Source: Nemertoderma westbladi (lineage: Eukaryota > Animalia > Xenacoelomorpha). From it: a stretch of 64,000 nt of DNA. Below, piece by piece: positions 5,405 through 40,879 of the stretch. Numbering within the stretch: the first letter of the stretch is position 1; the number at the start of each line of letters is the position of its first letter. The stretch covers positions 1-64,000 of the forward strand of contig JAUCBJ010008823.1 of the NCBI GenBank assembly GCA_032718475.1. The letters run 5' to 3'. The notes under the pieces are model-generated. The model saw only the letters and a list, made by a program, of their open reading frames with translations. It was not told the DNA's origin and made no database searches. The position numbers and the translations under genes were made by a program.

Positions 5405-7009
5405 GGATTATATATTTTGAGATAGACAAAAGAGTAGCAGTTACCGAAATCGGTTCTGATCCAAATGGCCATGTTTTACAAAACCAATCATCTGTTATAC
5501 CTGATCATTTGTTATCTGTTTAATGAAAATTTTGTGTTAGCGCTTTAGTAAAATATGTTCTTTCAATCTCAATTTCATATATTTTGACTCTTTTGATACT
5601 TGGCGCAGGGATTTTATGCATTTAGGGCCTTTAGATACTGTCTGATACAATAAACGGGATTGCGCTAGTGTACCTGTCAACAAGGACCGCTCACTGTATC
5701 GATCGCTTCCCCTTTGCCTTCCTCTCATAAGTTGGTTTACTCTATAATTTATTTGGTTCAATACGGTATTTGATTATCTATTGTATTTAACTGAGATACA
5801 GTACTATACCGGGAGGGTGTGACAACAAAGATAACAAGTAAATGACTGACTAATTAATTCTGTAAGGACTCAAGTTCAGTGTTTGTGTTTCCCTTTAGGG
5901 GAAACGTATTTTGACTTGTCTTTATTAGAAGACCGTCAGGGCTTCTTGCTGTCAAAAAAAAACGTCTGTGTGTTTGTCTGTATGTTTGTGCACATTGATA
6001 TTGGCTTGGAAGGGTAAGAAGTGCTCTACTTCATGGCCAACTATACAAAGAAATGTATCGATTATTTGGGTTATTATTTCAGTTATTAATTATTTAAGCT
6101 GGTGAAATTAAGCTCTTGCTGTATAAAAATAGCACAGTTCGATTCTCCGTGTCCCATTCTCACAAAGTTTTTATTATATTCGAGTGTTTAATATAAAGAT
6201 GTATGATTATTTATTGATTGAAAATAAAATAGTGTATAAATATGTAATATTCCCTCATGCAGCTTGAACTTTGCCTATGGTAGCGAATAGGGAAGGATTT
6301 TCTCTGTATCATAGCAACGGTTGTATAACTAGAGAGCCAGCAAGCTGGCTGGAAGGAGCCCGGGGGGAAGAATCCTAGCCAATACTAAACTAAACAATTG
6401 TCTAAATGGTGTGATGATACATAGCTGACTTTGTGGCTTGCCCCACATAATAAAAAATGAAACTTTGCTGCCACTAACAACCGAATATTTATAAGAAAAT
6501 GCCCATGATTCACAACCAGATAAATAACAAGTTAGATTTACCAGTACAGGTACGGTTACCTTTCTTTTTGAAAACCATTCGATTTAACAATTAATAGAAG
6601 TCTAGGTCGCGGCGAAAAATAATAACGCAAATTAAACAACCATACAATCGGCCTACACACTTTTTTATTATTCGAAATAAATTCGCTAACAGAAAATATC
6701 TAAACTAATTTATTTATTTACTAATTAATCTAAACGAGAAGGTGAACAATTGTTTCTACACAATTAATTATGACGACTTTTATGGGATATGTAATATTTA
6801 CTGTTCAATAATAATTTACAATCTCCCATTCCAACACATTCCCAGAGAGTAATAATATCATCAATATAACAAACTAAGTGGATTATAATTCGATTTCTTC
6901 AGCCAAGTCCGATAGCTATTTTTCTGAAATTTATATTGCTAATTTAATTATTTGGCATATTCTGTTTGTGGCGCAGACTATAATAATAATAACATTGTTG
7001 ACATACAGT

Positions 7010-7548
7010 AGTAGTAGGGTCTTGGGCGGCTCTGCGACAGTTGGACCTAACTGACACCCATTGGGTGTCATATGACACCCAATTATCACCCTATGGGTGT
7101 CATTGGGTGTCATTGGCGCCAGACTGTCTGGGTGACACCTCCCAATTAGGCTAATTAGACCCTAATTGACAGGTGTCATCAATTAATTAGTACAATTAAA
7201 CCCTAACAGGTGTCATATGACTCCTAATTAGGGTTTAATTGATTATCCTAATTAATCAGACTGATTAGCGCCCTGACACACAATGGTTCATCAGTGATGT
7301 CCAACTGTCGCAGAGCCGGCTCAAGAGGGTGTCATAAGTGACACCGCAGCTCTTTTATTCATTAATACTTATTTATTTATATTTAATTTTAATTAATTAT
7401 TTGCATTTTATTTTACTTTATTTATTCATTTGTACTTTATTTTAAATTAATTAATTGTATTACTTTTATTTTATACATTGATTTCTATTTTTAGATTAAT
7501 TAGTTTTTATATTACCAATGAGATCACTATGACATAATGTCTATTTTT
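7010..7548 (+). repeat. Left terminal inverted repeat of the Polinton-like element
   Basis: Reverse complement of 22339-22770; the inner part (about 7370-7548) also matches about 21866-22040. Confidence 0.9.
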
Positions 7549-8038
7549 AACTTTATAATGGCTATGGTATACGGCTCCCTACTGGCAACTATCAACTAGG
7601 TTCATCGGCGGGGGCCCCTCCTCTGTCCTCATTATTCATTAACTAGATACGACAGGCAGTGAATCTACACGTATACCCCCAAGGCAAATATAAATGAGCA
7701 GTCCCGTCTATTAGCAGCCCCTTCGTTGACTCACTAATAATCCCATCGCGGCCTTGACTACAGCAAATCCGTATATCGCCCAAGGCTAATGCTCAAGCGG
7801 CCCTCCATTGTTCCCACTATAACCGGCGTCGCTTTGTCCCTTTCCTATATCCAGGCAGCCCGTATCATAACAATGAAGCGCCACTAATCACGCATTCCTC
7901 TCTACTAATCCCTTTCCTTTGCACCAGACCTGCTTCTGTTATACAGCCAACTCAACATAATTAGTCAAGATGCTTACAAGAGTTTTCTAATATAGAATCA
8001 ACACGAGAAGTTGCCTTGGTAACCGCTTTTGCGCGAAC

Positions 8039-8130
8039 AGCCAATCAGCGGGCTTCATTTCTGCTGCTGCGCTCTGATTGGCTCATTTAAGAGACAAGGG
8101 CCTCCCCTACTAACCGAATTGCTATTTAAT
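8039..8130 (+). promoter_or_regulatory. Putative Pol II promoter of the pPolB transcript
   Basis: Inverted CCAAT boxes AGCCAATCAG (8039) and CTGATTGGCT (8074); TATA-like TATTTAA at about 8123. Confidence 0.5.
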
Positions 8131-8282
8131 ACATCCCCACTAATATATTAGATCATTATTTCAATTGCAAGTTACGATTAACATCATTTACCATTATTTT
8201 GTTTTCGAATTTAATATTATTTATTTAAGAATATTTATTTGTTATCATCGATCAACAACCCACTTGTATAGTTGTATTATTG

Positions 8283-9075
8283 TCATTTCGCCGCGTTATC
8301 GCTCATCGTCGACAACAAACTTTCCGCGTATCCGCCGTGTAATATTCTTCCGATACCATTCCGTTCTATCGGTAAATAAACTCTCTCGTCGTCCACGTCA
8401 ACCAACTTCCTCATCGCCACCGAACTTCCAAACTTCTTCTTTCCGTGAATATTTACTAATACCGTAAGTAAAATCTGCCTTCCACCATCTGACGGTACTA
8501 TCGATGCCGCTAGCAAACAATTTACATTTATTATCTACCGGTACAACAGTATTGCAGTAAGTTCATTATTAATTACTGTCAGACTGTGGTGGTACCGATA
8601 GCCTAAACCGTGATCGAAGCACTCGATCATTAGGCCTACATCCGCCTATCTGCTTACAGTATTTTTTATCTTTTTACAAATAATCAACTTATTTTTCTAG
8701 TATCATTTCGCCGCGTTATCGCTCATCGTCGACAACAAACTTTCCGCATATTCGTCGCGTAATATTCCAATATTTCTAATTTCAGATATCATTCCGTTCT
8801 ATCGATTAATAAACTCTCTCGTCGTCCACGTCAACCAACTTCTTCGCGAACATCCAAACTTCTTCTTTCCGTGAATATTTACTAACACCGTAAGTAAAAT
8901 CTGCCTTCCACCATCTCCATCGATGCCAGTAGCAAACAATTTACATTTAATGTCTACCGGTACAACAGTATTGCAGTAGGCTCATTATTAATTACTGTCA
9001 GACTGCGGAGATACCGATAGCCTAAACCGTGATCGAAGTAATCGATCAATAGGCCTACATCTGTCTATCTGCTTG
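8283..9075 (+). repeat. ~380-bp direct duplication in the spliced 5' leader of pPolB
   Basis: About 8283-8655 matches about 8703-9075; both copies contain CC|GTAAGT donors; near-identical acceptors (...TTTTTCTAG) end at 8700 and 9564. Confidence 0.75.
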
Positions 9076-9571
9076 TCTACCTGACTACCGATACCGCATC
9101 ATTCGAGTTAGCCTAGATCCTACTGAACAACAATGAATACTGCAGTTTTCACTATATATCCTACTGACTAACTGAGATCTCACACAGCGATTAGCTAGGC
9201 CTATCGTTGATTTCTATTGGTTAACGCTACCGGTACGTCTGACTTGTAGCAGACTATATCACTAGCACTACTGCACTGACTGACTGCTGTTTATAGACCC
9301 TCTTTCCACGAATAATAACTGCCATCGCTATTGCGTCTTGACTATCGCCACTATCTAACCGCTGGTACACTAGCACTACTACACTAGACACTGCCGACTG
9401 TCTGCTTTATGTTTCACTGACTGATTGCTACAATACAGCAATAGGCCTAACTATACAAACACAGTATTGTTGCCTAGTAACCAATTAATACCTACTGTTT
9501 TACTTTATTTTTAGCACGTATACAGTATTTTTTATTTTTATAAATAATCAACATATTTTTCTAGATTCAAC

Positions 9572-12500
9572 ATGCCAAGATCAACCAATAAAGTTAGCTG
9601 CCCCATCTCCGACAAAGAGATGCGGAGCGATAATCTAAAATCACATATTAAAATTCATTTCGCGCAATACAGATGCGACTGTTGCTCGACTTGGTCTTCG
9701 GAAAAGAAGACGCTGGTTGGCCATCTTGTTTCGTGTCCTCAGGGGGGAACAGGATTTAGTTACATAAACGAGCCAGCCGATTGCCGCTGCGGGGATTCGC
9801 TCACCCTGTCATCCTTTACTGAGCATGAATGCTACACTCGACTTTTTTCGCGGAAACGCAAAACTCCGACTACCTCCCACTCATCCCCCATCAACTCTAC
9901 TCCAGAACAAGTCGGCGGCGGCGGCTCCAATAATGAACCTTCAACTTCACGAGATTCTATTTCCCCAAACAATCCCTTTAAACCCCCCTCCAACGGAAGC
10001 GCACACGGACGACTGTTTACCTATAACAATGACCTCGCAGAAACAAGACTCGACGCAGAATTAACATTAAACGAAAATTTTCCACATATTCAAGAACATG
10101 TTAGTAGCCATTTACGTAGTGCCATGGGAACTTTTTTAAGAGTCTGGCTTACAATCAATATCGTAATGGAGCGTGAAACCAGCGAGGGATTTCAAATTGA
10201 ATCTTTCTGTTTTAAATCTAGCGGTAACAATAATCAAATTCTAAATAATAGCGACTTTAATAACTGGTTTTCTGGCGCCGTCAATCGTATCGATCAACTG
10301 TTAAGCGTGTTTCTCTGCCTCGGCTCGGGTTGGCGCATAATAGCCATCGAGCGACTAACTATTGAGATTGCGCGGTCCCAACGCAACCCCTATTTAAAGG
10401 GTCAAGGCTTCAATAATTCTAAATTATTATTAAATAAAAAATGTACCGTAAGCGTAGACTGCCCGCTGGGGGAATGCTTTAAATACGCAGTATTGGCCGC
10501 CGCAAATTATAAGAAAATTGATAGAAAACAAAATAATATTAGTAGAATTTCAACGTTTACTCCTTTCCTAAACATGTTTGATTTTTCGAATTTAAGTTTT
10601 CCGGTGGACAGAGTAACTGGTATTCCCCAGTTTCTGAAAGCCAACCCTATATACTGCATAAACCTTCTTTATTGGAGTAATACGGAAGAACTCTCCATTT
10701 TAAGTCAGCCTGATAGCGCGCACTGTTCCGGTAAAACTGTACTAAACTTATTATTTATCGAAGCCACAAACAAAAACCCCGCCCACTACGTAGCTATTAC
10801 TAACATAGATAGATTAATAAATACAAAAGCTACTTCTAAAGGCAACAAGACGCACTGCGAACACTGTCTCAGAGCCTTTTACACTGACAAATCATTGGAA
10901 GAACATCGAGAGCGTTGCTATACGGGTAAATGCCAACTCGAGTATATGCCCGAAAATCTCTTGGTTAAATTTGACAGGTACGATAAGACTCTATCCCCAC
11001 CTTTCTGTATATACGCCGACATTGAAACTATTCTAGAACCTACAAACAATATTAAACTCCCACAGAAACATATAGCTAGCGCGGCAGCCTTTTATACAGT
11101 ACCAAATCAGAAATTAATTAACCCTCCTAAAACAGATGTTCAAATTTTCCGCGACGATGGCAGTAACCACGTAATGCGCGACTTTCTAACCGCTATGGAA
11201 AGTCATTGTAGGGAGTTATACGATTGGTCCATTTCTAGTACAAACACACGCGCCCCCATGCAACTCACTACTAGCCAACAAACTGACTTTAATAACGCTA
11301 CACGTCTGCAACTGTAATTTAACCCCCGATTCTCATAATTTAAACCTCAATGACAATCTCAGCACCAAAGTCCGCGATCACGATCATTATAGCGGGGAGT
11401 ATCGAGGGGCTGCTTGCGTCAGCTGCAACAGGAAACTTTCCCTAAAACGGAATAATTTTTATATTATATTTCATAACTTGAGGAAATTCGATATGCATTT
11501 ACTACTAAAAGAAGGAATGACCGATAGTTCTAGAACACACTGGAAAATGACTGTAATACCAAAAAACACCGAAACTTATATTCACCTTAAAGTTAGCTTC
11601 CCAATCGATCCGAGTACACCAACAGCCAACGCTAAAGAAAGTATCTCCATTAATTTTCTAGATTCCTATCAGTTTATGACTGCCAGCCTAGATAATCTTA
11701 GTAGTTATCTCACTAAAAATAACAGTAACCTAGCAACAGCCATACCCCATACACTAGCTCAAATGACCCGACTCTATCCCATCATTAGCGATAACACAAT
11801 AAAAAACAAGGGCGTATTCCCATATTCCTACATTCAAAATATTTCAAACCTATACGAAACTACACTCCCCCCAATAGAAAGCTTCTATAATGATCTCAAA
11901 TTGGAACAATGTAGCGCAGAGAACTATCAGCGCGCGCTTACTACTTGGGATGAATTAAACTGCACAACAATCTTCGACTATATGATTGGCTATTTGGTTC
12001 TAGACGTTACCCTATTGGCTGATACTTTCGAGCAGTTCCGATCCCTCTGTCTTACTAATTATGGACTCGAGCCCGTAATGTACTTCACTGCCCCTGGATT
12101 AACTTACGACGCGGCGCTGAAATTCACGCAATCAGAAATTCAATTACTATCAGACGCTTCCATCTACTCAGACTTTGAAACAAATATTAGGGGTGGTCTA
12201 GTTTTCTTGAATACGCATTCCGTAGACGCAAATATTCCCGATAAACCCGACTACGACTCCAGTCTCCCCGAGAAATATCTAATTCCCATCGATGCGAATA
12301 ACCTTTACGGCTGCGCCCTGAGCCAGAAACTTCCCTACGCTAATATTAAACTCGTAACTACCCCCATAGACCTAGCTACAGTAGACGCGAGTGGGGATAC
12401 TGGTTATTATTGCATAGTTGATCTACATTATCCGAAAGAAATTCATGATTTGACCGCCGATCTGCCTCTAGGAGTGGAGAAGATGTCAGTCCCTAAATCC

Positions 12501-13469
12501 TTTCTTAGCGAATACATGGAAGATCTTTGGGAGCATTACAATCTCACCGATAAGGCTACCTGTAGACCATACAACGATACCTGTACTAAGCTACTACTAC
12601 ATCAGTTTAATAAGGTTGAATACGGTATCCATATTAAGCTACTTCAACTCTATTTGAAGCTCGGTCTTAAACTTACACAAGTACATAGGGTCTACTCTTT
12701 CTCGCAAAAATATATTTTCAAGGACTACATTAGTTTTAATACAAATAAAAGACAGTCGGCAAATAACCCATTCGAGGTCCTATTTTATAAGTTGATGAAC
12801 AATGCCTTGTATGGGAAATGCCTCCAAAAGGTTAGAGACCGCGTTTCTTTCAGGTTATGCAATAGCGACGAACAATGCGATTTGCTCTTAGCCAAGCCCA
12901 ATCACGAATCGTTTGTTGTATTTACCCCCAACTTGAGTGGTCATACTTTCACTAAAGAGGCTGTTTGCCTAAATCAGGGCGTGTTCATCGGTTGCACTAT
13001 ACTAGATCTATCTAAGCTACAGATGTACGACCTATTTTACAACAAACTGAAGCCTCTAGAACAAAAACTGGGTTGCCAGATTCGCTGTCTAGCCGGTGAC
13101 ACGGATTCTCTAATGCTAAGCGTAACTAATACACCACAGCTAACCTTTCTACGGGCAATGTTTGAGGGTGGTTTCCTAGATACTTCCAACTACAGTACAA
13201 CACATCCACTCTATACCATTAAACACAAAGCGGATCTCGGCTTCGTAAAAGATGAGAGCTGCGGTTTGCAGTATAAACAGTGGGTTTTCCTTAAACCAAA
13301 GGTCTACAGTTTTCAATCCTATGATGCCCCAATCAAGAAAACCGCCAAAGGTGTATCTAGATCGGTTGTCGCTAAGCAACTAACACACGAGGATTATGCA
13401 GACTGTTTTGAAAACGAGGCAATGCTCTTCCGCTATAACTCTACCTTCACTTCTAGAATAAGAAATTGA
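9572..13469 (+). pseudogene. Protein-primed family B DNA polymerase (Polinton/adintovirus type); frameshift at about 11300, C-terminus truncated
   Basis: N-terminal Zn-finger-like RSDNLKSHIKIH; exonuclease motifs YADIE and FHNLRKFD; EndoVII-like VRDHDHYSGEYRGAACVSCN in the shifted frame (about 11370-11430); polymerase motifs DANNLYG, KLMNNALYGK, GDTDS, KPKVY, KTAKGV. The usual terminal 'LS..DDKR...GH' segment is missing. Confidence 0.9.
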
Positions 13470-13973
13470 ACAACAAAATAGAAATAACCAATAAACAGTT
13501 TACCGGAAAAAACATTGCCAAATTTGAACTAGATAAAATTTCACAGCAAATTACAGGTCAAAGTTGCTTAAAACCAAACATGTTTATCTACAAAGGTGAC
13601 GATTCAACTATAATGCTATTTCCCAGCGGCGCAGTAACAATTGTAGGCCTGTGCAATAATTTAGCTAGTGAATTGCTTTATTTAAAACAAACTATCGGGA
13701 TGCAATTACAAAATTTGAAACTTAATACCGAAACACGAACTATTATTTTTCCAAGCGTTAATTTTAAATTATTAATGAAAAAATGTGGACATCATACAAT
13801 TAATAATAAAGCAATATTTATTAGCTATACCCCCCGAATTATTTTGCGCGATTAGAATATATATAGGACGTGCATATTTCAGTGTATTTCATAGTAATAA
13901 AATCGTTTCCATGTGTCCTGCCGGTGTATTCCCCGGATCATTATCTATTTTACAAACTATATTATTAAATTAG
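13466..13973 (+). pseudogene. TATA-binding-protein-like (TBP fold) gene; one extra C in the run at 13830-13835, no ATG
   Basis: Repeat 1: STIMLFPSGAVTIVG (cf. TBP TALIFSSGKMVCTG). Removing one C gives repeat 2: SYTPELFCAIRIYIGRAYFSVFHSNKIVSM (cf. SYEPELFPGLIYR...LLIFVSGKVVL). About 168 aa, roughly the size of the TBP core. Confidence 0.7.
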
Positions 13974-14029
13974 TTTATTTACTATGGTATACATGAAAGT
14001 TTACTATATTATTTATTTTGTGTTGGTTT

Positions 14030-15500
14030 TTATTTTTCCGTGAGTAGGGTTTGAATCCGTGACCATCCGTGTTACCTACTTTTTATAATTGCATTAGTAG
14101 GACTCGAACCCTGGTTTAACTTATTTTGGGTTGGTTTTATAATGGACGCGAGTAGGGATTGAACCCGTGACCTTCTGTTTATTTTCCATAAAACGGGATA
14201 CGAGAAGGGGTCGAACCTGCGAGCATATATTTTTCCTATTTTATGTTTAGTTTAGGTACTCTAATTATTCTATGTTTACTTTTTATATTTTCATGATTAG
14301 GATTCGAACCCTGGTTTATCTTATTTTGTGTTGGATTTATAATGGTCGCGAGTAGGGATTGAACCTATGACCTCCTGTTTATTTTCCATAAAACGGGATA
14401 CGAGTAGGGATTGAGCCCGTGACCTTCTGTTTTTCCTATTTTATGTTTAGTTTAGTTACTCTAGTTATTCTATGTTTACTTTTTATATTTTCATGATTAG
14501 GATTCGAACCCTGGTTTAACTTATTTTGTGTTGGATTTATAATGGTCGCGAGTAGGGATTGAACCCGTGACCTTCTGTTTTTCCTAATTTATGTTTAGTT
14601 TAGTTACTCTAGTTATTCTATGTTTACTTTTTATATTTTCATGATTAGGATTCGAACCCTGGTTTAACTTATTTTGTGTTGGATTTATAATGGTCGCGAG
14701 TAGGGATTGAACCTATGACCTCCTGTTTATTTTCCATAAAACTGGATACGAGTAGGGATTGAGCCCGTGACCTTCTGTTTTTCCTATTTTGTGTTTAGTT
14801 TAGTTACTCTATGTTAAAGTGAATTTTCACCTTTTATTTATATGTTAAATTATAAATTTATGTTACAATTATTATTTATATTATAAAAACAGAAATATTC
14901 GAGTTATATTGCATTATATATTTTACATTGAAGTGGAATACTTTAGATGTTGGGGGGGACTCTGGTTTGCGAGGGATATTTGAATGGTGAGTATAACTAT
15001 CCTTGAGAGCTAGTGCAACGCTATCTCACCATGGATGAGCTTTACCACTGTACTCGCATCTGCTCTCTCATTGGCTGCTCGATGCCTCCGATTAAGGGTC
15101 TAAGACCTTCAAGCTGATTATTTGCTTAGTTCTCTAATTGGAGGGATGTGAGTTTGGACGCTAGAAGAGCATTATTCTTTTTCCTAGCTCTTGGTTAACT
15201 CTAGCATACACTCTAGCTTTGACTCTCCCGCCAGCTATAGTTATAGTATGCAACCTTGGGAGTTAATGTGAGAATATATTTCAGTGTATTTCATAGTAAT
15301 AAAATCGTTTCCATGTGTCCTGCCGGTCCCTGGTTTAACTTATTTTGTGTTGGATTTATAATGGACGCGAGTAGAGATTGAACCCGTGACCATCTGTTTA
15401 TCCTATTTTGTGTTTAGTTTAGTCTAGTTATTCTATGTTTACTTTTTATAATTCCCATAAAACGGGATACGAGTAGGGATTGAGCCTGTGAGCATATGTT
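14030..15500 (-). repeat. Complex tandem array of about 14 tRNA T-arm/B-box motifs
   Basis: Minus-strand GGTCAYRGGTTCAATCCCTACTCGCG(A/T)CCA and CCAGGGTTCGAATCCTA at about 14041, 14096, 14148, 14200, 14296, 14348, 14401, 14496, 14548, 14644, 14696, 14749, 15367 and 15469; no A box or 5' tRNA half. Confidence 0.8.
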
Positions 15501-16400
15501 TTTCCTATTTTACCTCTTCTTCTCCATCTTTCTCACTCAAATTTTCCTCATTTTCTAGGGGTAACTGTTTTTGTATCCCTTTCAAAATATTCACAACTTT
15601 ATGAAATTTATTTTCCATTGGCTGTTTTATATTTAATATATCACGCTCATCTCTCTTTTTCTTTTCATCTTCACTAAAAATATCTTCGGATTTTTTAAAT
15701 TTTTTGGTAACGGAGCCATTAGTTTTCCTTTCTATATGTTTCCATATGACGAGATAAATTGTCTTGTCTCATTTCTTTATTACAAACCAAACAACTTTCA
15801 TGGCTATGCATTATATAGCAATGTCATTTGATAATATTGAATTTTCACATTATATTTATATGTTAAATTATAAATTTATGCTACAATTATTATTTATATT
15901 ATTATATCAGAAATAAAATTGCCATAAAACTAAATATAAAACTGCACCAGCATCCCACCACCAATCAGAACAATACAATTAAGACAATAAGGTTTAACAT
16001 ACATTATTTATATTATAAAAACAGAAATATTCGAGTTATATTGCATTATATATTTTACATTGAAGTGGAATACTTTAGATGTTGGGGGAATCTGGTTTGC
16101 GAGGGATATTTGAATGGTGAGTATAACTATCCTTGAGAGCTAGTGCAACGCTATCTCACTATGGATGGGCTTTACCACTGTACTCGCATCTGCTCTCTCA
16201 TTGGCTGCTCGATGCCTCCGATTAAGGGTCTAAGACCTTCAAGCTGATTATTTGCTTAGTTCTCTAATTGGAGGGATATGAGTTTGCACGCTAGAAGAGC
16301 TTTATTCTTTTTCCTAGCTCTTGGTTAACTCTAGCATACACTCTAGCTTTGACTCCCCCCGGCTATAGTGATAGTATGCAACCTTGGGAGTTAATGTGAG
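14820..16400. repeat. ~450-bp direct duplication inside the Polinton
   Basis: About 14870-15271 is nearly identical to about 16003-16400; the leading segment at 14820 matches 15838. Confidence 0.85.
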
Positions 16401-17198
16401 TAAAGACCAAGAGAATAGACTTCAGGCTCCCTCTATTGGTTCATTCTTCTTAACTTTATAAAATAACTCAACCCGTATTTAAAGTTTTAAAAATTATGAC
16501 TTAGTCGACTAATTTTCCAAAGTATATTATAAAAACATATAATTTCTTGAATAGATAGACCTAATAGTAATAAATAATGTGGGGGTAAATACATTTATAA
16601 TTAAGGTAACTGTAGCTCGAGACTGGGGCAATCAAGTGTTCTAACTAAGGTTCTATAGCAACTCCGATAGGCAATGATCGATAATGGTGGGGTCCCTGAG
16701 AGTAGATAGAGTGTATTATTCTCCAAATAGTTCCCAGGAAGTAAGAGGCCACGTTGCACCTTGCGGTGGTAGGCGTCAAGTTTGTCGATATCCTTTCGGC
16801 GTAGGGATCCAATAGTCAGAGTTAATCTGTGGCATCATGGCTATTGTCTGGATAACATTGTGGAGGTTGCTAGCGGGGTTAGAATTTCCCAGTTTGTGTC
16901 CGAGGAATTTCAGATGATTCGACATAGGCAAATACTGTAAGGAGTAACTGTAAGGGACAACTGCGCTCCCAATCTCGCTCGCCGGCCGGTCCTCACGCAA
17001 ATTTAGCCTATGAGAAAATAAATAAATTATTTTATAATTAAATAATAATTTATTATTTAAGTAATTGCTTTATAGCCATCTTGGTAATTCTTATAACGTT
17101 AAAATTATTGTAATTACTCAAATTAATTTCTATTCAAACTGCATATTGCTTTAACCTATTTTATTATATCATATTATATAAAGGAATGTTAGTATTAA

Positions 17199-17624
17199 TT
17201 AAAACTTACACCATGGTTCCTCCCTAAAATCCTCTGTTTCCTCCCAGTTTTCCTGGGGAAAAGGGTGAAGGAAACGCTGTTCCTCAGCCGCTGCTTTCTC
17301 TTTCAGAACATATTCCTGGTACAAATACTGGTCGTACCAGTTGGAGGAGGTCCGAAGCCCTTCCACACGCGCTTCCTCCAATGCTCGAATCTCGAGCTCT
17401 CGATTAACCAGATCCTCCTCCCAGGCCATCTCCTCTTCCTGATCCCTCATATAACGGCCATAGGGAGTGGCCGCTTCCGACCTGCTCTCCATGGTCTGTG
17501 TACCGACGCTTCTGGTCATGGTTGTGTTGATAGCGTTGGAAGCAGTGGTGATGGATGTAGCTGTGGTGGTGATGGAGACCGATGCCACGGGGGCAGCTAG
17601 CTGAGTGTTGGAGGTGGAATCCAT
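17199..17624 (-). CDS. Polinton-encoded 141-aa Thr-rich/acidic protein of unknown function
   Basis: ATG at 17624 in ACCATGG context; TATATAAA on the - strand at about 17755; GC-rich coding-like composition; acidic/Trp-rich C-terminus. Confidence 0.6.
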   Translation of the reverse strand: MDSTSNTQLAAPVASVSITTTATSITTASNAINTTMTRSVGTQTMESRSEAATPYGRYMRDQEEEMAWEEDLVNRELEIRALEEARVEGLRTSSNWYDQYLYQEYVLKEKAAAEEQRFLHPFPQENWEETEDFREEPWCKF

Positions 17625-19805
17625 GGTATTGATTAATTGGTAAATTAACAAGTTTAAAATTGTAAACGCAAAAGTTTAAAATGTAGAATAAATCACATAA
17701 AATTTTTCGAGCTCAAAACTGATTGACGAATGAAGGCCCCAACTCGGTTTATATAGCATCAGCGCAGAGGGAGCAACACAACAGTTTCAACGAGCGGCGG
17801 CTTTAATTAAAGGGCTCCCCAGTGATAAGTCGTTAGGAGCCAGTAGTAATTATATATCGGTAATAACTATGGGATATAGCATATGAATGTTAGCCTTATT
17901 TGGGCCCTCAAGCTTATTAGCAATAGAGATATCTCGCTTGCCGGCCGGCCCTCATGCAGATTTAGCGGCGCCAAGGCTAACGGGGCACCTCAAAGACAGT
18001 CTGGCTATAGTAGAGTAGAATGGATATACGAGTCCATAGCTAAAATACATCTGCCATGGAGCCTTCGCGTAGCACTATGCTCACCAATTATATTTATAAT
18101 TCTCTATCCGCGAAATTTTCAGGAATTTTAAATTTTGGCCGTCGCTTCATGGAAAAAATAAAAAGTAAACACAAAATAGGATATACAGATTGTCATAGAT
18201 TTGATTCCCTATCTCGACCAGGGTCATTATGACCCTCCCCCGTTATTTATACAATATTTTATAGGCCGGTAGTATTGGGGTTATTATGTGACTCATGAAA
18301 ATAAATCTTAAATACAATACAAATGCTCCATCTGGGTAAAAGTGGATGCAATGTATTTACAAATCGAGTGTGGATCAGGATAGTTTTCGTTAAGGTTTCA
18401 CCTTGATGAAGTGGAAGCATTGTATTCACATTTCGAGTACCATTTTTATTGAAACTATGGGGCATTTTATATTAGCCGATTTTTCAAAATTTGTAAAGTT
18501 TTGAGGGTTTTTATGAAAAATATAGGGATTTAGGGATTATCATTCAAATTGACTACGAAGAAGGCATAGGGATCATTAATGGTGTGCTGAGACTCAGAAA
18601 TTTTCAGGAAATTTAAATTTTTGCCCTCGCTTCGCGGCATTATGACCCTCCACCCCGATATTTATACAACATTTTATAGCCCGGTAGTATTATGATTAAA
18701 GCTACTAAACTAAAACATAACAAAGTGCAATTATCCTATCTGTTCCAACTCGGTGTCACTAGTTTAGATAATATACTATAATAATAGTGATAGCAGATGC
18801 TTTTAATTTCGCGATGAAATAATGTCAGCAAACGAAATATAGTGAATACATCATAGATAGAATTTTAAATTTTGCAGTTGCATGGAGTGATAACCCTTAG
18901 GTGAAAGCTAAATTTGCTCTACTTTAATCAAATGGGGCATTAAAGCTACGAGTATATTTTCCTCTACATCCTCCTCGAACTTACACAAATCTGGGCAAAG
19001 GCAGTTGAAAGGCTATCATTCCCATCATATGCGGTCCTCCCTTTAATGTTTCATTGTTCTATTCATAGTCGCCTTTAAGAATTTCTCGGGAAAATAAGGA
19101 TGAGGGGCTATCACTTTCAACCCCATGCGACCCTCCCTTTCATGATTTCATTGAACTATCCATAGTACGAACAATCAAACCAAAGCCTTTGAATATCCTC
19201 GCGGCTTATCAGCGGCGCCATGGCTAACGGCTTAATATTAACAGTGAAGCATCTAAAAGACAGAGTGTCTATGATAGGACAGAACAGCGTACTTACAGCC
19301 TAGAGGTGGTCGCCCTGAAAACTTTGCTCGCCATCAATACATACAAAGCATCGCTTGATGGATAGAGTAATAGGGTGGATATTTTCATTTTGGTGAATAT
19401 AATTTATAGCATTAATCACGAAAATCGCTAAATAATATATTTTAATTAAAATCAGCTCTGATAAACAACTTGCATATCGAGTTTGTAAAGAATTCATAGG
19501 GATTGGCTGTTTATTTAGGGGTTAACATTCAAATTGATTACGAAGAAGCAGTAGGGGTCATTAATGATATGCTGAGACTCACTTACTTCATGGCTCGCTC
19601 TCATAGAATAGATTAACTAGTAGAGAAAAATGAAAAATAAGTGGTTAAACAAGAATAAATAATTTACCGACAACATCAATATTAAATAATATAACAACAA
19701 CAGATAAATAATTTACCAACAACATTGAAAATAAATAATATAAGAACATCGACAATAACAAAAGATATAGTGAGAACAGTTTTTATTAAATAGAGACTGT
19801 TTATA

Positions 19806-21515
19806 TTAATAGGGTTGCTGGTCTCCGAGAATAACTGGTTTAACCCTTTTAGGGTCCGATACTATTAATGGTTGCGATAATTTTCTCTTTAATAGTTTGT
19901 TGAGATAACCTTTTCTTGGGGGGTGAAATAGATTAAGGTGTGTTTGCTGCGGGAGTAATATGCCTTCTCTGAGAGAACGTTTTAGTAATTCGAAAAGGCG
20001 CGCGATGGTAAAGTCGTTGGATAGGGTGATAGTGTTGGTATTTTTCGTATTGGTGAATATAATTTCTGCTGGTTTGTTCTCGATATGAATGTAAGGACTG
20101 AGATAGTAGTGAGAGTTGGGTGGGTTGGTTATATTTATCGCGAGAAAATCGCTGCCCCTAATATTGAGACCGTTGGTGAACTGAAAAGTGGTATTCTCTT
20201 CGTCTTTCATTAAAATGGGCCAGATACCAACATATTTTTCGGATTTGAACTTATAGATAAAGGCTGCGATACTGTTATTTATGAGATAGCGCTGGTGATT
20301 GGGGATTGTAATCTGCTTCGGTTTGAAAGCAAATTGTATAGCCATAGCCTTGAATCTGATTAGAGCCTCGCGCGCTTGAATCGTGTTAGCTATAGTAAAG
20401 GATTCGTTAAATTTTCTCTCGGTTATCTGTAAATCAATTTCTGAATCGCTGATACAACTTTGTATCGATATTCGCTCGGAAATGTTGTCTTTGTATACGT
20501 CAAGTTCATCGTAGCAGACACATTCACTATCCTCGACGGTTGAATCGAACCATTTCAATTCGCCGACCTCGGTTGGTGTAAAAAGAATCATGCCCCTAGA
20601 AGAAACAATAGCCTTTCCATCGTCAACCTCGTAGCCATTGGTGATCGCTAAATTGCGCTCGTTCCGAATATTTGTAACAAACCCAAAAGTGCAATAGTCA
20701 AAAGCAACCCAATTTCCCGGTTTTAGGAAAAGGTGAGTAGTAGGATTAATAAAAGGGCGACAGATGTTTACATATTGTTGAAATAAATTGGCGCAGGTGA
20801 CGGAAAATGTGATCCATGAACTGTTTACAGTGTCTTCCAGCTTTATTAACTCGAGTGGTTTCACTGGGTTAATACTTCCATAGGTGCCAACTCTATAATT
20901 GAATCCAAAGTAATAGGAGACTTTATTTGCGAAAAAGCATGTGAGCTCATTCAATTTCTCGCCGAAAGCGAGAACATCCTTGTCGAAAAGTTTAAAGAAA
21001 CGAGTCTCCTCTTCCTCGGTCGGAGTCGACGAGTTCCAGATGAGAAGAAGAATCGAGTTTGCGATACTATGAAAATCAAATAAGCGATCATCGGAGAAGA
21101 AGGAGGTTACGAGAGTGGTTAAACCCAGTAGACGATTTGCCACATTTTGGTTGATGTTTTCTCGAATAAAATCGACTATACTAGTTGGAATCGTAAACGT
21201 CTCGGGCGAAGTAGTTAGATTGAACGTGATTTTGTTGTCCCTTTTTAAAAGTTTGAAACCGTGGTTGGAGGAATGAAGTTTATTATCGTCGAGGGTTTGA
21301 TATTGTCCATCGTGAAGTTCGTAGCAGGCGCGGAAAATAAAGTGCGCGTAGTTTGCCGGAATCGGGATGGGTTGGTTTAAGGTTGTATTTATCGTTAACG
21401 GGAAGAGTTTGTTCGCCGAATCGAAATATAGACCAAACGAGTTGTCTTGTAGCATAAACTGATTTTCGTTGCAAACCAAATCGTTGCTTGAATAGCTGAT
21501 TTCTGAATGTGCCAT
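19806..21515 (-). CDS. Polinton-encoded 569-aa protein, possibly with PC4/Sub1-like repeats and a C-terminal NLS
   Basis: Intact long ORF with ACGATGG start and AATAAA just downstream; two segments resemble PC4; basic tail KRKL...PKRVK. Confidence 0.8.
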   Translation of the reverse strand: MAHSEISYSSNDLVCNENQFMLQDNSFGLYFDSANKLFPLTINTTLNQPIPIPANYAHFIFRACYELHDGQYQTLDDNKLHSSNHGFKLLKRDNKITFNLTTSPETFTIPTSIVDFIRENINQNVANRLLGLTTLVTSFFSDDRLFDFHSIANSILLLIWNSSTPTEEEETRFFKLFDKDVLAFGEKLNELTCFFANKVSYYFGFNYRVGTYGSINPVKPLELIKLEDTVNSSWITFSVTCANLFQQYVNICRPFINPTTHLFLKPGNWVAFDYCTFGFVTNIRNERNLAITNGYEVDDGKAIVSSRGMILFTPTEVGELKWFDSTVEDSECVCYDELDVYKDNISERISIQSCISDSEIDLQITERKFNESFTIANTIQAREALIRFKAMAIQFAFKPKQITIPNHQRYLINNSIAAFIYKFKSEKYVGIWPILMKDEENTTFQFTNGLNIRGSDFLAINITNPPNSHYYLSPYIHIENKPAEIIFTNTKNTNTITLSNDFTIARLFELLKRSLREGILLPQQTHLNLFHPPRKGYLNKLLKRKLSQPLIVSDPKRVKPVILGDQQPY

Positions 21516-21629
21516 CGTGATTGTGTACCGGTAACTCGTTTAGGAAATAAAAATAAATAAATACTTTTACGAAAATAATTAAAACTTTTCAGGAAAACAA
21601 AGAGACAATGATTGGGAATGTGGTGAACG

Positions 21630-21760
21630 GGGGCTATTATAGAGGGGGCTAGAATGGGTTAGCCAATCAGGGAACAGGAGGGAGAAAAGACTATATAATT
21701 AAACCAATCAGAGAGCAGCTTTGATGACGTCACATCAGGCGAGATAATGATTGCCCAATG
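21630..21760 (-). promoter_or_regulatory. Putative promoter of the 569-aa gene
   Basis: TATAATA (- strand, about 21636-21642), CCAAT boxes at about 21663, 21704 and 21755, CRE TGACGTCA at 21725. Confidence 0.55.
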
Positions 21761-21865
21761 TTATTCAATGGTAGACAGAATGGCGCCATTGAATAACGAA
21801 GACAAAGGGGCCGCGAGAGGAAAGATTATAAAGTTAACGATAAGGGATCTATAAACCATAGAGCT

Positions 21866-22770
21866 AAAAATAGACATTATGTCATAGTGATCTCATTGGT
21901 AATATAAAAACTAATTAATCTAAAAATAGAAATCAATGTATAAAATAAAAGTAATACAATTAATTAATTTAAAATAAAGTACAAATGAATAAATAAAGTC
22001 AAATAGAATACAAATAATTAATTAAAATTAGGTACAAATAAATAGTTAAATTGAAAATAACAAAGTTAGAGAAGATGTTAATTTTCAGATAATACGCCCT
22101 CTAGCGGCAGACTATGGAACTGCAGGCGGTTGGATATAGGTAAGAGTAATTAGTAATCAGAGCTGTCACGGGGTGGGGGCAGGGGTGCTTGGATACAACT
22201 ATCATTAATATGCTGTTGCTTGGTTAAAGCTAATTGGGGGGTCAAAGGTTAACGATAAAGCTGTCTGGATATAGATAAGAGTAATTAGTTACCAGTAAGG
22301 GAGCTGTATACCCATAAAGTACAAATGAATAATTAATATAAAATAAAGTACAAATGAATAAATAAAGTAAAATAAATGTACAATTAATTAAAATTAAATA
22401 TAAATAAATAGGTATTAATGAATAAAAGAGCTGCGGTGTCACTTATGACACCCTCTTGAGCCGGCTCTGCGACAGTTGGACATCACTGATGAACCATTGT
22501 GTGTCAGGGCGCTAATCAGTCTGATTAATTAGGATAATCAATTAAACCCTAATTAGGAGTCATATGACACCTGTTAGGGTTTAATTGTACTAATTAATTG
22601 ATGACACCTGTCAATTAGGGTCTAATTAGCCTAATTGGGAGGTGTCACCCAGACAGTCTGGCGCCAATGACACCCAATGACACCCATAGGGTGATAATTG
22701 GGTGTCATATGACACCCAATGGGTGTCAGTTAGGTCCAACTGTCGCAGAGCCGCCCAAGACCCTACTACT
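21866..22770 (-). repeat. Right terminal inverted repeat, with a ~300-bp internal interruption
   Basis: 22339-22770 and about 21866-22040 both match the left TIR; 22040-22320 is unique. Confidence 0.85.
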
Positions 22771-23423
22771 TACAGTCTTTGAACCTTTCAGTCTTTCTCA
22801 GCAGTACTTTGTGGCTCGTCCCACATAATAAAAACTGAAACTTTGCTATGACAACACACCCGGTTCTTTTAAATTTGCGTGATTTGATTTATGCTCGCAC
22901 CACTATTTGTAAGAAATATTAGAACTTATCTTACAGTATGCCAATGTAGTAATGGTATTAAAATATAATTAAATTAATTTACACTATTAATGCTTCAGCT
23001 AAAAAATCGTTTCAGCTAAAAAATCGTATGTAATAAAAAAAATAAGAATATTTTTAATATGTGTATATGTAATATAGGTATTACTGCTAAGTTAGGCAGT
23101 AGGCCAGAGCGGGCTCCTTAAATACATGCAACTACTGTATTATAGTGTAGGTCAACTATAAAACATTTTGCAATCCACAGTGAGTATCGACTGCAATAGG
23201 ACACAACACACTGCTTTGTGTAACTAAAATTCATTCTCCTGATCCACCCCCTAACATAGCAGAGTGAGTAACCTTATTGTAGATACTGTATACCCTTAGG
23301 AAGCACTGGGAGAGCAATCAGCTTATGGGGTAATACATTAGAAACCAACAGCTTATGTGTGAGTAAACATTGACTTTCCTTATAGCCTACTAGTAAAACT
23401 TGGCAACCAATACGTTTTACTAT

Positions 23424-24410
23424 GACTGTGTATAACATATTAAGCCATATTTCATCATGAACACCAGCTGTTATTTTACCATTGCTTTTAATTTCGCGAC
23501 AAAACAATGTCAAAAAACTAAATATATCGAATACCACACATAGAATCGATCTGAAATTTTGTAACGCGATTATGAACCTCAAAAGCAATGTACTTGCAAA
23601 ATTTCATCAAAATCGCCAGGCAGGAAGTGCCTTAACCTAGATAATTATCAGTCAGTCAGTGTCAGTCAATGTAATGTATCCTGAAGATTCTTACAGTAAG
23701 TATCCCGCTGTCAAGCGGGCTCCTAAGACTGTGTATAACATATTAAGCCATATTTCATCATGAACACCAGCTGTTATTTTACCATTGCTTTTAATTTCGC
23801 GACAAAACAATGTCAAAAAACTAAATATATCGAATACCACACATAGAATCGATCTGAAATTTTGTAACGCGATTATGAACCTCAAAAGCAATGTACAGTA
23901 CTTGCAAAATTTCATCAAAATCGCCAGGCAGGAAGTGCCTTAACCTAGATAATTATCAGTCAGTCAGTGTCAGTCAATGTAATGTATCCTGAAGATTCTT
24001 ACAGTAAGTATCCCGCTGTCAAGATAATTATCAGTCAGTCAGTGTCAGTCGATGTAATGTATCCTGAAGATTCTTACAGTAAGTATCCCGCTGTCAAGCG
24101 GGCTCCTAAGACTGTGTATAACATATTAAGCCATATTTCTTCATGAACACCAGCTGTTATTTTACCATTGCTTTTAATTTCGCGACAAAACAATGTCAAA
24201 AAACTAAATATATCGAATACCACACATAGAATCGATCTGAAATTTTGTAACGCGATTATGAACCTCAAAAGCAATGTACTTGCAAAATTTCATCAAAATC
24301 GCCAGGCAGGAAGTGCCTTAACCTAGATAATTATCAGTCAGTCAGTGTCAGTCAATGTAATGTATCCTGAAGATTCTTACAGTAAGTATCCCGCTGTCAA
24401 GCGGGCTCCT
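23424..24410 (-). repeat. Three tandem ~300-380-bp copies of the 5' end of the inner Helentron/DINE-like element
   Basis: GACTGTGTATAACATATTAAGCC at about 23424, 23727 and 24110; each unit ends with the hairpin CCCGCT-GTCA-AGCGGG. Confidence 0.85.
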
Positions 24411-26009: not shown

Positions 26010-26368
26010 ATTCAGTTTGGATCCTCCGTCTATTAAGACAAAAGGCTACCGACAGTGGCTGGACGCCTTACGGGCGATGGCTCGGTTACCCCACGGTCTA
26101 CCCGGCCAATGGAGGAAGACCATATGGTTGAAGTTAGCTGAGAGTCACATAGTAGCCAGCGAGATCGACTGGCCTCGGTGTGTGCGGATCGCATTCAATG
26201 ACCGGAGTAATCCAGACGACGATAAACTTGGATCCCAAATCGTAAAAGATCTCCATCGGACTGGCTGCGCGGGTTTCTGTGAGGAAGATGATGAACAGAA
26301 CAGAGCGCTACTTAAACGGGTTCTATTGGCCTACGCTAGGTGGAACAAAATCATTGGATATTGCCAAG
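26010..26368 (+). CDS. TBC1D30: TBC1 domain family member 30-like Rab-GAP, internal exon
   Basis: TTTAG acceptor; FSLDPP...QWLDALRAMARLP.G.P..WRK.IW...IVKDLHRTGC...LKRVLLAYARWNK.IGYCQG (IxxDxxR and YxQ fingers); donor CAAG|GTAAGT at 26369. Confidence 0.93.
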
Positions 26369-29300
26369 GTAAGTGAGTTCTTTTAGTTGACGCTAGGTGG
26401 AACAAAATCATTGGATATTGCCAAGGAAAGTGAGTTCTTTTAGTTGACGCTAGGTGGAACAAAATCATTGGATATTGCCAAGGTAAGTGAGTTCTTTTAG
26501 TTGACGCTAGGTGGAACAAAATCATTGGATATTGCCAAGGTAAGTGAGTTCTTTTAGTTGACGCTAGGTGGAACAAAATCATTGGATATTGCCAAGGTAA
26601 GTGAGTTCTTTTAGTTGACGCTAGGTGAAACAAAATCATTGGATATTGCCAAGGTAAGTGAGTTCTTTTAGTTGACGCTAGGTGGAACAAAATCATTGGA
26701 TATTGCCAAGGTAAGTGAGTTCTTTTAGTTGACGCTAGGTGAAACAAAATCATTGGATATTGCCAAGGTAAGTGAGTTCTTTTAGTTGACGCTAGGTGGA
26801 ACAAAATCATTGGATATTGCCAAGGAAAGTGAGTTCTTTTAGTTGACGCTAGGTGGAACAAAATCATTGGATATTGCCAAGGTAAGTGAGTTCTTTTAGT
26901 TGACGCTAGGTGGAACAAAATCATTGGATATTGCCAAGGTAAGTGAGTTCTTTTAGTTGACGCTAGGTGGAACAAAATCATTGGATATTGCCAAGGAAAG
27001 TGAGTTCTTTTAGTTGACGCTAGGTGGAACAAAATCATTGGATATTGCCAAGGTAAGTGAGTTCTTTTAGTTGACGCTAGGTGGAACAAAATCATTGGAT
27101 ATTGCCAAGGTAAGTGAGTTCTTTTAGTTGACGCTAGGTGGAACAAAATCATTGGATATTGCCAAGGTAAGTGAGTTCTTTTAGTTGACGCTAGGTGGAA
27201 CAAAATCATTGGATATTGCCAAGGAAAGTGAGTTCTTTTAGTTGACGCTAGGTGGAACAAAATCATTGGATATTGCCAAGGTAAGTGTGTTCTTTTAGTT
27301 GACGCTAGGTGGAACAAAATCATTGGATATTGCCAAGGTAAGTGAGTTCTTTTAGTTGACGCTAGGTGGAACAAAATCATTGGATATTGCCAAGGTAAGT
27401 GAGTTCTTTTAGTTGACGCTAGGTGGAACAAAATCATTGGATATTGCCAAGGTAAGTGTGTTCTTTTAGTTGACGCTAGGTGGAACAAAATCATTGGATA
27501 TTGCCAAGGTAAGTGAGTTCTTTTAGTTGACGCTAGGTGGAACAAAATCATTGGATATTGCCAAGGTAAGTGAGTTCTTTTAGTTGACGCTAGGTGGAAC
27601 AAAATCATTGGATATTGCCAAGGAAAGTGAGTTCTTTTAGTTGACGCTAGGTGGAACAAAATCATTGGATATTGCCAAGGTAAGTGAGTTCTTTTAGTTG
27701 ACGCTAGGTGGAACAAAATCATTGCATATTGCCAAGGTAAGTGAGTTCTTTTAGTTGACGCTAGGTGGAACAAAATCATTGGATATTGCCAAGGAAAGTG
27801 AGTTCTTTTAGTTGACGCTAGGTGGAACAAAATCATTGGATATTGCCAAGGTAAGTGAGTTCTTTTAGTTGACGCTAGGTGGAACAAAATCATTGGATAT
27901 TGCCAAGGTAAGTGAGTTCTTTTAGTTGACGCTAGGTGTAACAAAATCATTGGATATTGCCAAGGTAAGTGAGTTCTTTTAGTTGACGCTAGGTGGAACA
28001 AAATCATTGGATATTGCCAAGGTAAGTGAGTTCTTTTAGTTGACGCTAGGTGGAACAAAATCATTGGATATTGCCAAGGTAAGTGAGTTCTTTTAGTTGA
28101 CGCTAGGTGGAACAAAATTATTGGATATTGCCAAGGTAAGTGAGTTCTTTTAGTTGACGCTAGGTGGAACAAAATCATTGGATATTGCCAAGGTAAGTGA
28201 GTTCTTTTAGTTGACGCTAGTTGGAACAAAATCATTGGATATTGCCAAGATAAGTGAGTTATTTTAGTTGACGCTAGGTGGAATAAAATCATCGGATATT
28301 GCCAAGGTAAGTGTGTTCTTTTAGTTGACGCTAGGTGGAACAAAATCATTGGATATTGCCAAGGTAAGTGAGTTCTTTTAGTTGACGCTAGGTGGAACAA
28401 AATCATTGGATATTGCCAAGGAAAGTGAGTTCTTTTAGTTGACGCTAGGTGGAACAAAATCATCGGATATTGCCAAGGAAAGTGAGTTCTTTTAGTTGAC
28501 GCTAGGTGGAACAAAATCATTGGATATTGCCAAGGTAAGTGAGTTCTCTTAGTTGACGCTAGGTGGAACAAAATCATTGGATATTGCCAAGGTAAGTGAG
28601 TTCTTTTAGTTGACGCTAGGTGGAACAAAATCGTTGGATAGTGCCAAGGTAAGTGAGTTCTTTTAGTTGACGCTAGGTGGAACAAAATCATTGGATATTG
28701 CCAAGGAAAGTGAGTTCTTTTATTTGACGCTAGGTGGAACAAAATCATTGGATATTGCCAAGGAAAGTGAGTTCTTTTAGTTGACGCTAGGTGGAACAAA
28801 ATCATTGGATATTGCCAAGGTAAGTGAGTTCTTTTAGTTGACGCTAGGTGGAACAAAATCATCGGATATTGCCAAGGTAAGTGAGTTCTTTTAGTTGACG
28901 CTAGGTGGAACAAAATCATTGGATAGTGCCAAGGTAAGTGAGTTCTTTTAGTTGACGCTAGGTGGAACAAAATCATTGGATATTGCCAAGGAAAGTGAGT
29001 TCTTTTAGTTGACGCTAGGTGGAACAAAATCATCGGATATTGCCAAGGAAAGTGAGTTCTTTTAGTTGACGCTAGGTGGAACAAAATCATTGGATATTGC
29101 CAAGGTAAGTGAGTTCTTTTAGTTGACGCTAGGTGGAACAAAATCATTGGATATTGCCAAGGAAAGTGAGTTCTTTTAGTTGACGCTAGGTGGAACAAAA
29201 TCATTGGATATTGCCAAGGTAAGTGAGTTCTTTTAGTTGACGCTAGGTGGAACAAAATCATTGGATAGTGCCAAGATAAGTGAGTTCTTTTAGTTGACGC

Positions 29301-40270: not shown

Positions 40271-40879
40271 ATTGCCCAGACATTGCCGAGGCCCGAGGTA
40301 AGTAATATCTTTTAGTTAGAATGGGCAAAATAATTGTTATAGAAAGGCCAGATATAAAATACAGAACAGAATAATTAATGCACATTTAAATAATAATAAA
40401 ATACATGACATAATACAATTAACGAACAAAGCAACACAAAAACAGCACTGACAATGGGAAACAACAAAGAGTTAAAATTCGTCTGCCAGTCCAACACCGC
40501 GCAGACCCACCCCGTCACCAAATCCGAGAGCCCGCCAAGACCGACGTCCCCCTCGGAGGCAGAGGGAGTTGGACCGGAGGAGCGCGAACTGCAGCCGCCG
40601 GCGAACACCCCCCAGAACGCACGCGAGGCCCCTCTCTCTCATACCATCCCGCCTCGACACAAGTGTCTCGGCGAGTTGGCGGATTAGGATCTGGGCCTCA
40701 TCGCACCATACTCCATCAGTGGTGCCGACCAATGGGGTGAACGCCATCCTCCGGTCCTCGCAAAATAATTGGATATTACCAATATTAACTTCAAGGTTTT
40801 AGTTGATGCTTGGTATATGTAATAACATAAACATTTTTATAATTATAATTAAAAAATAAATAAACAACAATCTTTACAG

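Follow-up and report, generated by a model that had tools for sequence, protein, structure and literature searches.

A divergent TBP-like gene in a decayed Polinton-derived element of Nemertoderma westbladi and an intact relative in a canonical Polinton

Do Polintons carry a TBP of their own, and if so, which promoters would it serve? The question is raised by a 64,000-nucleotide stretch of the genome of Nemertoderma westbladi (GenBank assembly GCA_032718475.1, contig JAUCBJ010008823.1, positions 1 to 64,000 of the forward strand; hereafter, the window), in which a pPolB gene is followed by reading frames with TBP-type motifs. A preliminary description, made from the sequence alone, had placed a Polinton-like element there and had taken its divergent TBP-fold protein for the element's own promoter-recognition factor.

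Anatomy and decay of the window element

An element of 15.8 kb occupies positions 7010 to 22770 of the window; it is bounded by terminal inverted repeats and a 6-bp target duplication and encodes a Polinton-type pPolB. The following features are referred to below.

7004..7009, no strand: left target-site duplication, TACAGT; identical 6 bases at 22771-22776
7010..7453, no strand: left terminal inverted repeat, first bases AGTAGT; 98.4% over 444 nt
9572..11317, plus strand: N-terminal part of pPolB, in the first of its two frames, opening with the ATG at 9572; matched by BLASTP in 105 of 120 pPolB homologues
11190..13469, plus strand: polymerase part of pPolB with an endonuclease VII-like zinc motif (Pfam), C terminus truncated
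13451..13458, no strand: presumed junction left by a deletion, with pPolB on one side and the TBP-like gene on the other, from loose contig ends
13457..13831, plus strand: TBP-like piece 1, covering repeat 1 and the N-terminal half of repeat 2; earliest ATG at residue 42
13830..13835, plus strand: frameshift breaking the TBP-like gene; two frames, with a length difference in 4 of 4 runs
13836..13973, plus strand: TBP-like piece 2, with the second stirrup ELF, F144, the last helix, and the stop; in register with P0243 (see below)
14013..14830, minus strand: tandem array of 148- to 200-nt units with a B-box-like motif, GGTTCRANNCC
15276..15327, plus strand: 52-nt exact duplicate of a segment of piece 2 (13874-13925), from self-BLAST
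17199..17624, minus strand: orphan ORF, with an ordinary TATATAA box at about 17755
19806..21515, minus strand: orphan ORF, a long open frame of 577 aa inside the element
22330..22770, no strand: right terminal inverted repeat, pairing with the left repeat
22771..22776, no strand: right target-site duplication, TACAGT, from self-comparison

The inverted repeats are 100% complementary over 389 nt (7010-7398 versus 22382-22770), and their inner parts are A/T-rich. Polinton/Maverick elements are assigned by AG(T) repeat ends together with a 6-bp target duplication, and both are found here. In its long AGT-starting repeats, its 6-bp duplication, and its pPolB with an endonuclease VII-like motif, the element resembles the Polinton/Maverick group (Polintoviricetes), from which the window copy differs in showing no integrase, ATPase, protease, or capsid gene. 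No integrase match was found within the element, either by tblastn with the integrase of L084 (a canonical Polinton described below) or with the cluster profile; given the target duplication, the integrase either acted in trans or has since been lost. For ATPase, protease, and major and minor capsid proteins, none of 22 cluster profiles matched the element, the antisense strand of pPolB aside, and 866 ORFs from the loci described below gave no tblastn match to it at 1e-4. The 577-aa ORF had no match in Pfam, NCBIfam, or the Polinton cluster profiles and only weak matches in PHROGs (E of 0.13) and the PDB (E of about 0.4); it may be a very divergent Polinton gene that escapes these searches. 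Motifs of the CCAAT and CRE types can be seen ahead of it. As a whole, the element behaves like a non-autonomous, internally deleted Polinton derivative.

The polymerase part of pPolB matched the Pfam families DNA_pol_B_2 (1e-19) and Endonuclease_7 (6e-4), and 584 homologues were found at an E value of 1e-20 or below among 7996 candidates, the named ones coming from spider, mussel, pseudoscorpion, oyster, and dragonfly. The gene is damaged in two places: a frameshift lies near 11300, where contigs from 4 of 4 sequencing runs differ in length, and the C terminus is about 38 residues short (median over 113 of 120 homologues). Part of the stretch is contained in 6 of the 9 runs listed, and we compared its copies in four of them, X1 to X4, from three studies; the summed contig depths lie in the thousands, which is not a copy number. 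Loose contig ends were found before position 13451 in X1, X3, and X4 and behind position 13458 in X1, X2, and X3, so that all four runs point to other copies carrying sequence that is missing from the window; the pPolB shortfall agrees with a deletion at this place. The adjoining of pPolB and the TBP-like gene, which had been described as lying directly after pPolB, is thus a property of the window copy only.

The TBP-type motifs are present where they had first been noted. LFPSGAVTIVG sits in a plus-strand frame of 132 residues (13457-13855), and ELF and SVFHSNKIV sit in an overlapping frame (13779-13973) with a stop at its end. The homopolymer-region frameshift proposed between them was borne out, with the length difference at the break affecting all of the contig depth in X3 and X4 and a third to half of it in X1 and X2. 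Read through with an X at the break, the frame gives 171 aa, compared with 169 aa for the intact homologue P0243. Its start is another matter. The stretch first described opens with TTG at 13466, which is at most a candidate start; the first ATG is residue 42, and translation from there would leave out the initial strand and helix. Just before the TBP frame, at 13451-13456, lie an in-frame stop and a splice acceptor-like TTCTAG, so that translation probably began in an upstream exon that went with the deletion. A stretch resembling the TTCTAG site also precedes the pPolB start. The loose end at 13925 in X1 fits the junction of the 52-nt duplicate at 15276-15327.

Frameshifts, loose ends, and a short pPolB together show the window copy to be decayed and internally deleted. 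The contigs of the four runs indicate that other copies are free of the breaks in pPolB and in the TBP-like gene, and the copy of the latter in the window, frameshifted and with its 5' end apparently lost, is probably non-functional; the earlier view that this copy encodes a working factor is not supported. Run X4, recorded as "DNA?", gave contigs covering 13485-14070 and no cover at 11776-12927, a gap to which no weight is given. Two of its loose ends match a template-switch cDNA adapter, and X4 looks like cDNA; its cover of the TBP-like gene is a weak hint of transcription. No RNA data set is among the runs listed for the stretch, which has no bearing on expression.

Several other features of the window were recorded. 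Within the element, a 402-nt direct repeat (14871-15272 and 16003-16400) is 96.8% identical, and at 8283-9074 a 419-nt unit is duplicated in tandem (87% matches); the short broken frames on the minus strand there are perhaps the remains of a small gene. Repeated minus-strand motifs that are B-box-like and resemble a tRNA T arm occur at 14013-14830 and 15328-15512; the array was considered as a tRNA or Rfam RNA, and this was rejected, with no tRNA or Rfam match. Possible readings of the array are a TFIIIC-binding insulator and a SINE-derived minisatellite. Just outside the element, at 23483-24232, three 64-nt stretches are 82% identical to pPolB bases 11789-11854. Further on, at 26200-40400, a 57-bp sequence of strong GC skew is repeated in tandem in about 245 near-identical units, giving minus-strand open frames of up to 1455 codons. 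The remainder includes a plus-strand 402-aa frame with DUF4682 (42561-43769; E of 1e-7), a minus-strand 800-aa frame with a weak zinc-knuckle match (52116-54518), and an apparently intact BEL/Pao retrotransposon polyprotein of 2490 aa on the minus strand (55743-63215; Peptidase_A17, DUF1759, DUF5641). The Pao-type retrotransposon and the DUF4682 frame speak for an animal host, probably an invertebrate.

Relationship of the window protein to TBP

Direct evidence for the identity of the protein is modest but consistent. TBP was the sole Pfam family matched, with an E value of 0.12 (12.7 bits) for piece 1 alone and 0.016 (15.5 bits) with piece 2, below the 22.9-bit cut-off of PF00352; it was also the only NCBIfam family matched (E of 0.056). 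In the ESM Atlas, TBP clusters made up 29 of 30 matches, with a top score of 0.96; recognition of the protein by ESM was low, at 1655 versus 2300 for most known families. Against a shallow, mostly haloarchaeal TBP alignment, hhalign returned 2.7% probability, and the score of the protein on the haloarchaeal TBP profile was reached by 12 of 2000 shuffles.

The strongest evidence is transitive, by way of an intact protein of 169 aa, P0243, encoded at positions 14633-15139 of L084. P0243 passes the Pfam cut-off with 56.7 bits (E of 2e-15) and matches yeast TBP in the PDB at 1e-11; by sequence, it is an unambiguous TBP. The window protein aligned with it by BLASTP at an E value of 6e-8, with 21% identity over 129 residues, and none of 2000 shuffles reached the phmmer score of the whole window protein against P0243, piece 1 giving 17.8 bits. 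On this similarity, we regard the window protein as homologous to an unambiguous member of the TBP family, and its homology to TBP as very probable.

Two TBP repeats had been proposed, and they fare differently. Repeat 1 is well supported and, like the whole protein, exceeds chance in the shuffle test. Repeat 2 is recognizable only by motifs and register: in the alignment with P0243, piece 2 falls in step with YEPELF and VFTTGK, a match that is weak by itself. The score of the second frame alone against P0243 was reached by 60 of 2000 shuffles, that of the second half of the protein by 290, and that of the half-versus-half self match by 1567.

Searches for closer relatives of the window protein gave few results. 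No candidate among 38 emerged from the homologue search with the X-read-through protein, piece 1 had no phmmer match among 1.84 billion representatives, plasmids gave no match for the gene, and PHROGs gave nothing below an E value of 0.18. Scans of viral contigs found no locus with the window pPolB alone, no new locus with P0243, and none among 96 with the two-sequence alignment; the ATPase alignment found five distant loci, and the TBP alignment found one, on a 140-kb contig. PF00352 was absent from all six viral records, of 31, that were searched with it. No PDB sequence matched the window protein by phmmer at an E value of 10 or below, and its identity to cellular TBPs is 11 to 22% (11 to 20% to solved TBPs in structural alignments), in keeping with the suggestion that the gene is not a recent host capture.

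A fold prediction from the single sequence was uninformative (pLDDT of 33.7). For piece 1 (residues 1 to 125), the input alignment included five TBP rows, so the fold test is partly circular; one of five models reached a pLDDT of 60.9, with residues 99 to 125 below 50, and about 100 residues were modelled with confidence. The top three VIA rows for this model were TBPs (Z of 10.7, 10.7, and 9.3; rmsd of 3.1 to 4.9 over 98 to 116 residues), compared with a Z of 7.3 for the best non-TBP row, and the best Foldseek match had an E value of 1.6e-3. Within that circularity, the model agrees with the family matches and the P0243 alignment on the TBP fold first proposed for the protein.

Residues N12, F55, Y124, E127, F129, and F144 are invariant in a comparison with P0243 and eight archaeal TBPs. 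By alignment with yeast TBP, three of them, F55, F129, and F144, fall on three of the four DNA-kinking phenylalanine sites (F99, F116, F190, and F207 in yeast). The first of these sites is occupied by Asn (N41) in the window protein and Tyr in P0243; an alternative alignment gives F43. The first hairpin is shortened in both proteins. The acidic second stirrup of TBP serves TFIIB. Its YEPELF is complete in P0243, and the window protein keeps Y124, E127, L128, and F129, with one Glu retained and the other replaced by Thr; the frameshift falls in this stirrup. Helix 2, on the convex face, is basic in TBP and provides contacts for TFIIA, TAF1, Mot1, and Brf1; it is Lys/Arg-rich in yeast TBP, acidic in P0243, and nearly uncharged, with one Lys, in the window protein. 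These features would suit a DNA-binding protein that may still accept TFIIB but no longer answers host regulators of TBP. Relative to cellular TBP/TRF (PF00352), then, the core length, probably the two-repeat layout, three of four kinking phenylalanine sites, and part of the stirrup are kept; the short first hairpin, the replaced first phenylalanine, the non-basic helix 2, and halves that are not detectably alike set the window protein apart.

An intact TBP gene and a CATAAAC box in a canonical Polinton

L084 is one of 111 loci around pPolB relatives (31 viral, and 80 of 486 confirmed metagenome stretches), from which 5078 ORFs were translated. With the window protein as query, the best ORF was L084:14633-15139, that of P0243, at an E value of 3.2e-4 (next, 0.61); an independent haloarchaeal TBP profile picked the same ORF at 1.7e-5 (next, 4). 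One locus with a TBP in 111 is a minimum: the majority of the loci are fragments, just 46 of them having at least six ORFs, and the profile used for the screen gives only 4.1 bits to a gene with the divergence of that in the window. The gene lies directly upstream of the packaging ATPase, in a locus that also encodes pPolB, a PLA2-like protein, a zinc finger protein, an rve-chromo integrase, and a minor capsid-like protein, with the same core gene order as loci L104 and L018. An intact homologue within a canonical Polinton upholds the linkage of the gene to Polintons that the preliminary description had drawn from the window. The accessory gene set of L084 is unusual: it comprises two paralogous ORFs with 32% identity that are unmatched in the other loci (L084:12917-13489 and 17647-18141), a KilA-N gene, and an unmatched 155-aa ORF.

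The heptamer CATAAAC occurs 10 times in L084, always on the coding strand, compared with 1.74 expected. It stands 11 to 73 bases ahead of the start codon in 7 of 14 ORFs. Across the 110 remaining loci, 4 of 650 ORFs have it upstream, and TATAAA or TATATA is found there instead in many cases. The genes it precedes include those for the ATPase, the integrase, the PLA2-like protein, and the minor capsid-like protein; no CATAAAC box lies upstream of the TBP gene or pPolB. Within L084:11153-18144, the coding-strand form of the box is CATAAAC(A/G). The motif was first noticed by eye and tested afterwards, a post-hoc choice for which the shuffles control: only 1 of 2000 gave any 7-mer in seven upstream regions of L084. 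In 12 of the 46 loci with at least six ORFs, two of the 12 being the same element, no more than 1 of 150 shuffles matched the top upstream 7-mer; in 11 of these 12 the word is pure A/T, and L084 alone has one that contains C.

The box of L084, although its association with a TBP gene is one of a single element, favours a private promoter factor. The proposal that the protein is such a factor thus gains indirect support from L084, but not from the window element, in which no private box was found and an ordinary TATA box precedes one of the surviving genes; CATAAA is not in excess in the window (44 versus 66 expected), and the structural genes, before which a box would be expected, are absent from the element.

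Possible roles of a Polinton TBP

We lean, by a little, toward the view that the TBP of an intact element binds a nonstandard TATA-like box and recruits host TFIIB and Pol II to the packaging, integration, and capsid genes. In such a scheme, the host machinery would read pPolB and TBP first, as early genes. The Polinton TBP would then bind its private box (in L084, the TATA variant CATAAAC) and, together with TFIIB and Pol II of the host, would switch on the packaging, integrase, and capsid genes. Recruitment would proceed through the partly kept second stirrup, the loss of the basic helix 2 would allow escape from host regulators of TBP, and the lineage of the window element would follow the same logic as L084. 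A broader version, which we put forward tentatively and do not consider probable as yet, is that a subset of animal Polintons uses a bare TBP of 170 residues, present across distant Polinton lineages, which has evolved jointly with a private TATA variant and guides host Pol II to the genes for packaging, integrase, and capsid proteins; it might then be the smallest known viral late-gene switch.

The same protein could instead be directed at the host, as a decoy for TFIIB and TBP partners or an occupant of host TATA boxes, with no box of its own. Retention of second-stirrup residues while helix 2 lost the basic residues of yeast TBP would suit such a mimic, as would the want of a private box in the window element, but the phenylalanines of the DNA face have been retained and the L084 box precedes exactly the genes that a late programme needs, and we consider this reading unlikely. 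Slightly less likely still is a protein that binds or bends A/T-rich DNA, such as the terminal repeats, for replication, integration, or packaging and plays no part at promoters. The position of the L084 gene next to the packaging ATPase, the A/T-rich inner parts of the window repeats, and the eroded partner surfaces would all accord with it; against it, a box confined to the coding strand and to the 11 to 73 bases before start codons fits a promoter element.

Doubt of a different kind attaches to the resemblance itself, which might be partly fortuitous, the protein being half a TBP or an unrelated alpha/beta protein whose second part is no TBP repeat. The Pfam score below threshold, the weak hhalign result, and the nonsignificant second repeat speak for this, but Pfam, NCBIfam, and ESM agree with the independent pick of the L084 TBP, the motifs are in register, the lengths are 171 and 169 aa, and other copies appear to lack the break; we consider such a partly fortuitous resemblance very improbable. 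We give least credence to a role with RNA polymerase III, in which the protein would act as TBP does in TFIIIB and the neighbouring B-box-like array would be its template. All nine exact B-box-like matches of the window do lie at 14100-14713, within 750 bases behind the gene, but they are copies within one tandem array and not independent (chance mean, 0.64); L084 is without such an array, its two matches being one palindromic site 4 kb from the TBP gene, and the basic helix 2 surface, which Brf1 uses, is missing.

TBP-like genes are not unreported in Polinton-like viruses: Starrett et al. (bioRxiv 10.1101/697771; PMC8502044) name them in figure legends for MELD viruses with an adintovirus-like PolB, that is, in mid-size linear double-stranded DNA elements of the Polinton/adintovirus kind. 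There, TBP is a label in the legends, in a section on non-animal data sets; the text passages on these viruses (10.1101/697771; PMC8502044) discuss no function or promoter box, and the supplement text, as available under PMC8502044, has no match for TBP. The present case differs in comprising an integrated element in an animal genome and a canonical Polinton with a private box. TBPs are also mentioned for algal mobile elements without a DNA polymerase (PMC10675990). The TBP-like late activators of herpesviruses (BcRF1 of EBV, ORF24 of KSHV and MHV68, and UL87 of CMV) use TATT boxes and act within a six-protein viral complex (PMC4893493). What L084 shares with them is a divergent viral TBP fold and a noncanonical TATA variant before structural genes. 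The herpesvirus proteins are large, with extra Pol II-binding domains, whereas in the Polinton protein only the core is present, about 170 aa, and its presumed box is CATAAAC, not TATT. TBPs of Nucleocytoviricota and nudivirus/nimavirus-like viruses were several among the weak BFVD fold matches (E of 0.04 to 0.18; rows named TBP/TFIID); these viruses are far larger than the window element, and many bring their own RNA polymerase. No report of a TBP in an animal Polinton, or of a box to go with it, came up in a literature search that had most subscription journals outside its scope.

Do animal Polintons pass through a virus stage that is regulated? The question has long been open. A dedicated TBP with a private promoter box would, if true, be direct evidence of a late-gene programme in Polintons, and the box would then mark endogenous Polintons that still have a programmed virion stage. 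The value of the window copy is that it adds a second, very distant lineage carrying a TBP gene. One small natural protein and a 7-base motif allow the hypothesis to be tested, and it would show, in parallel to the herpesviruses, how far a TBP can be stripped down and re-targeted.
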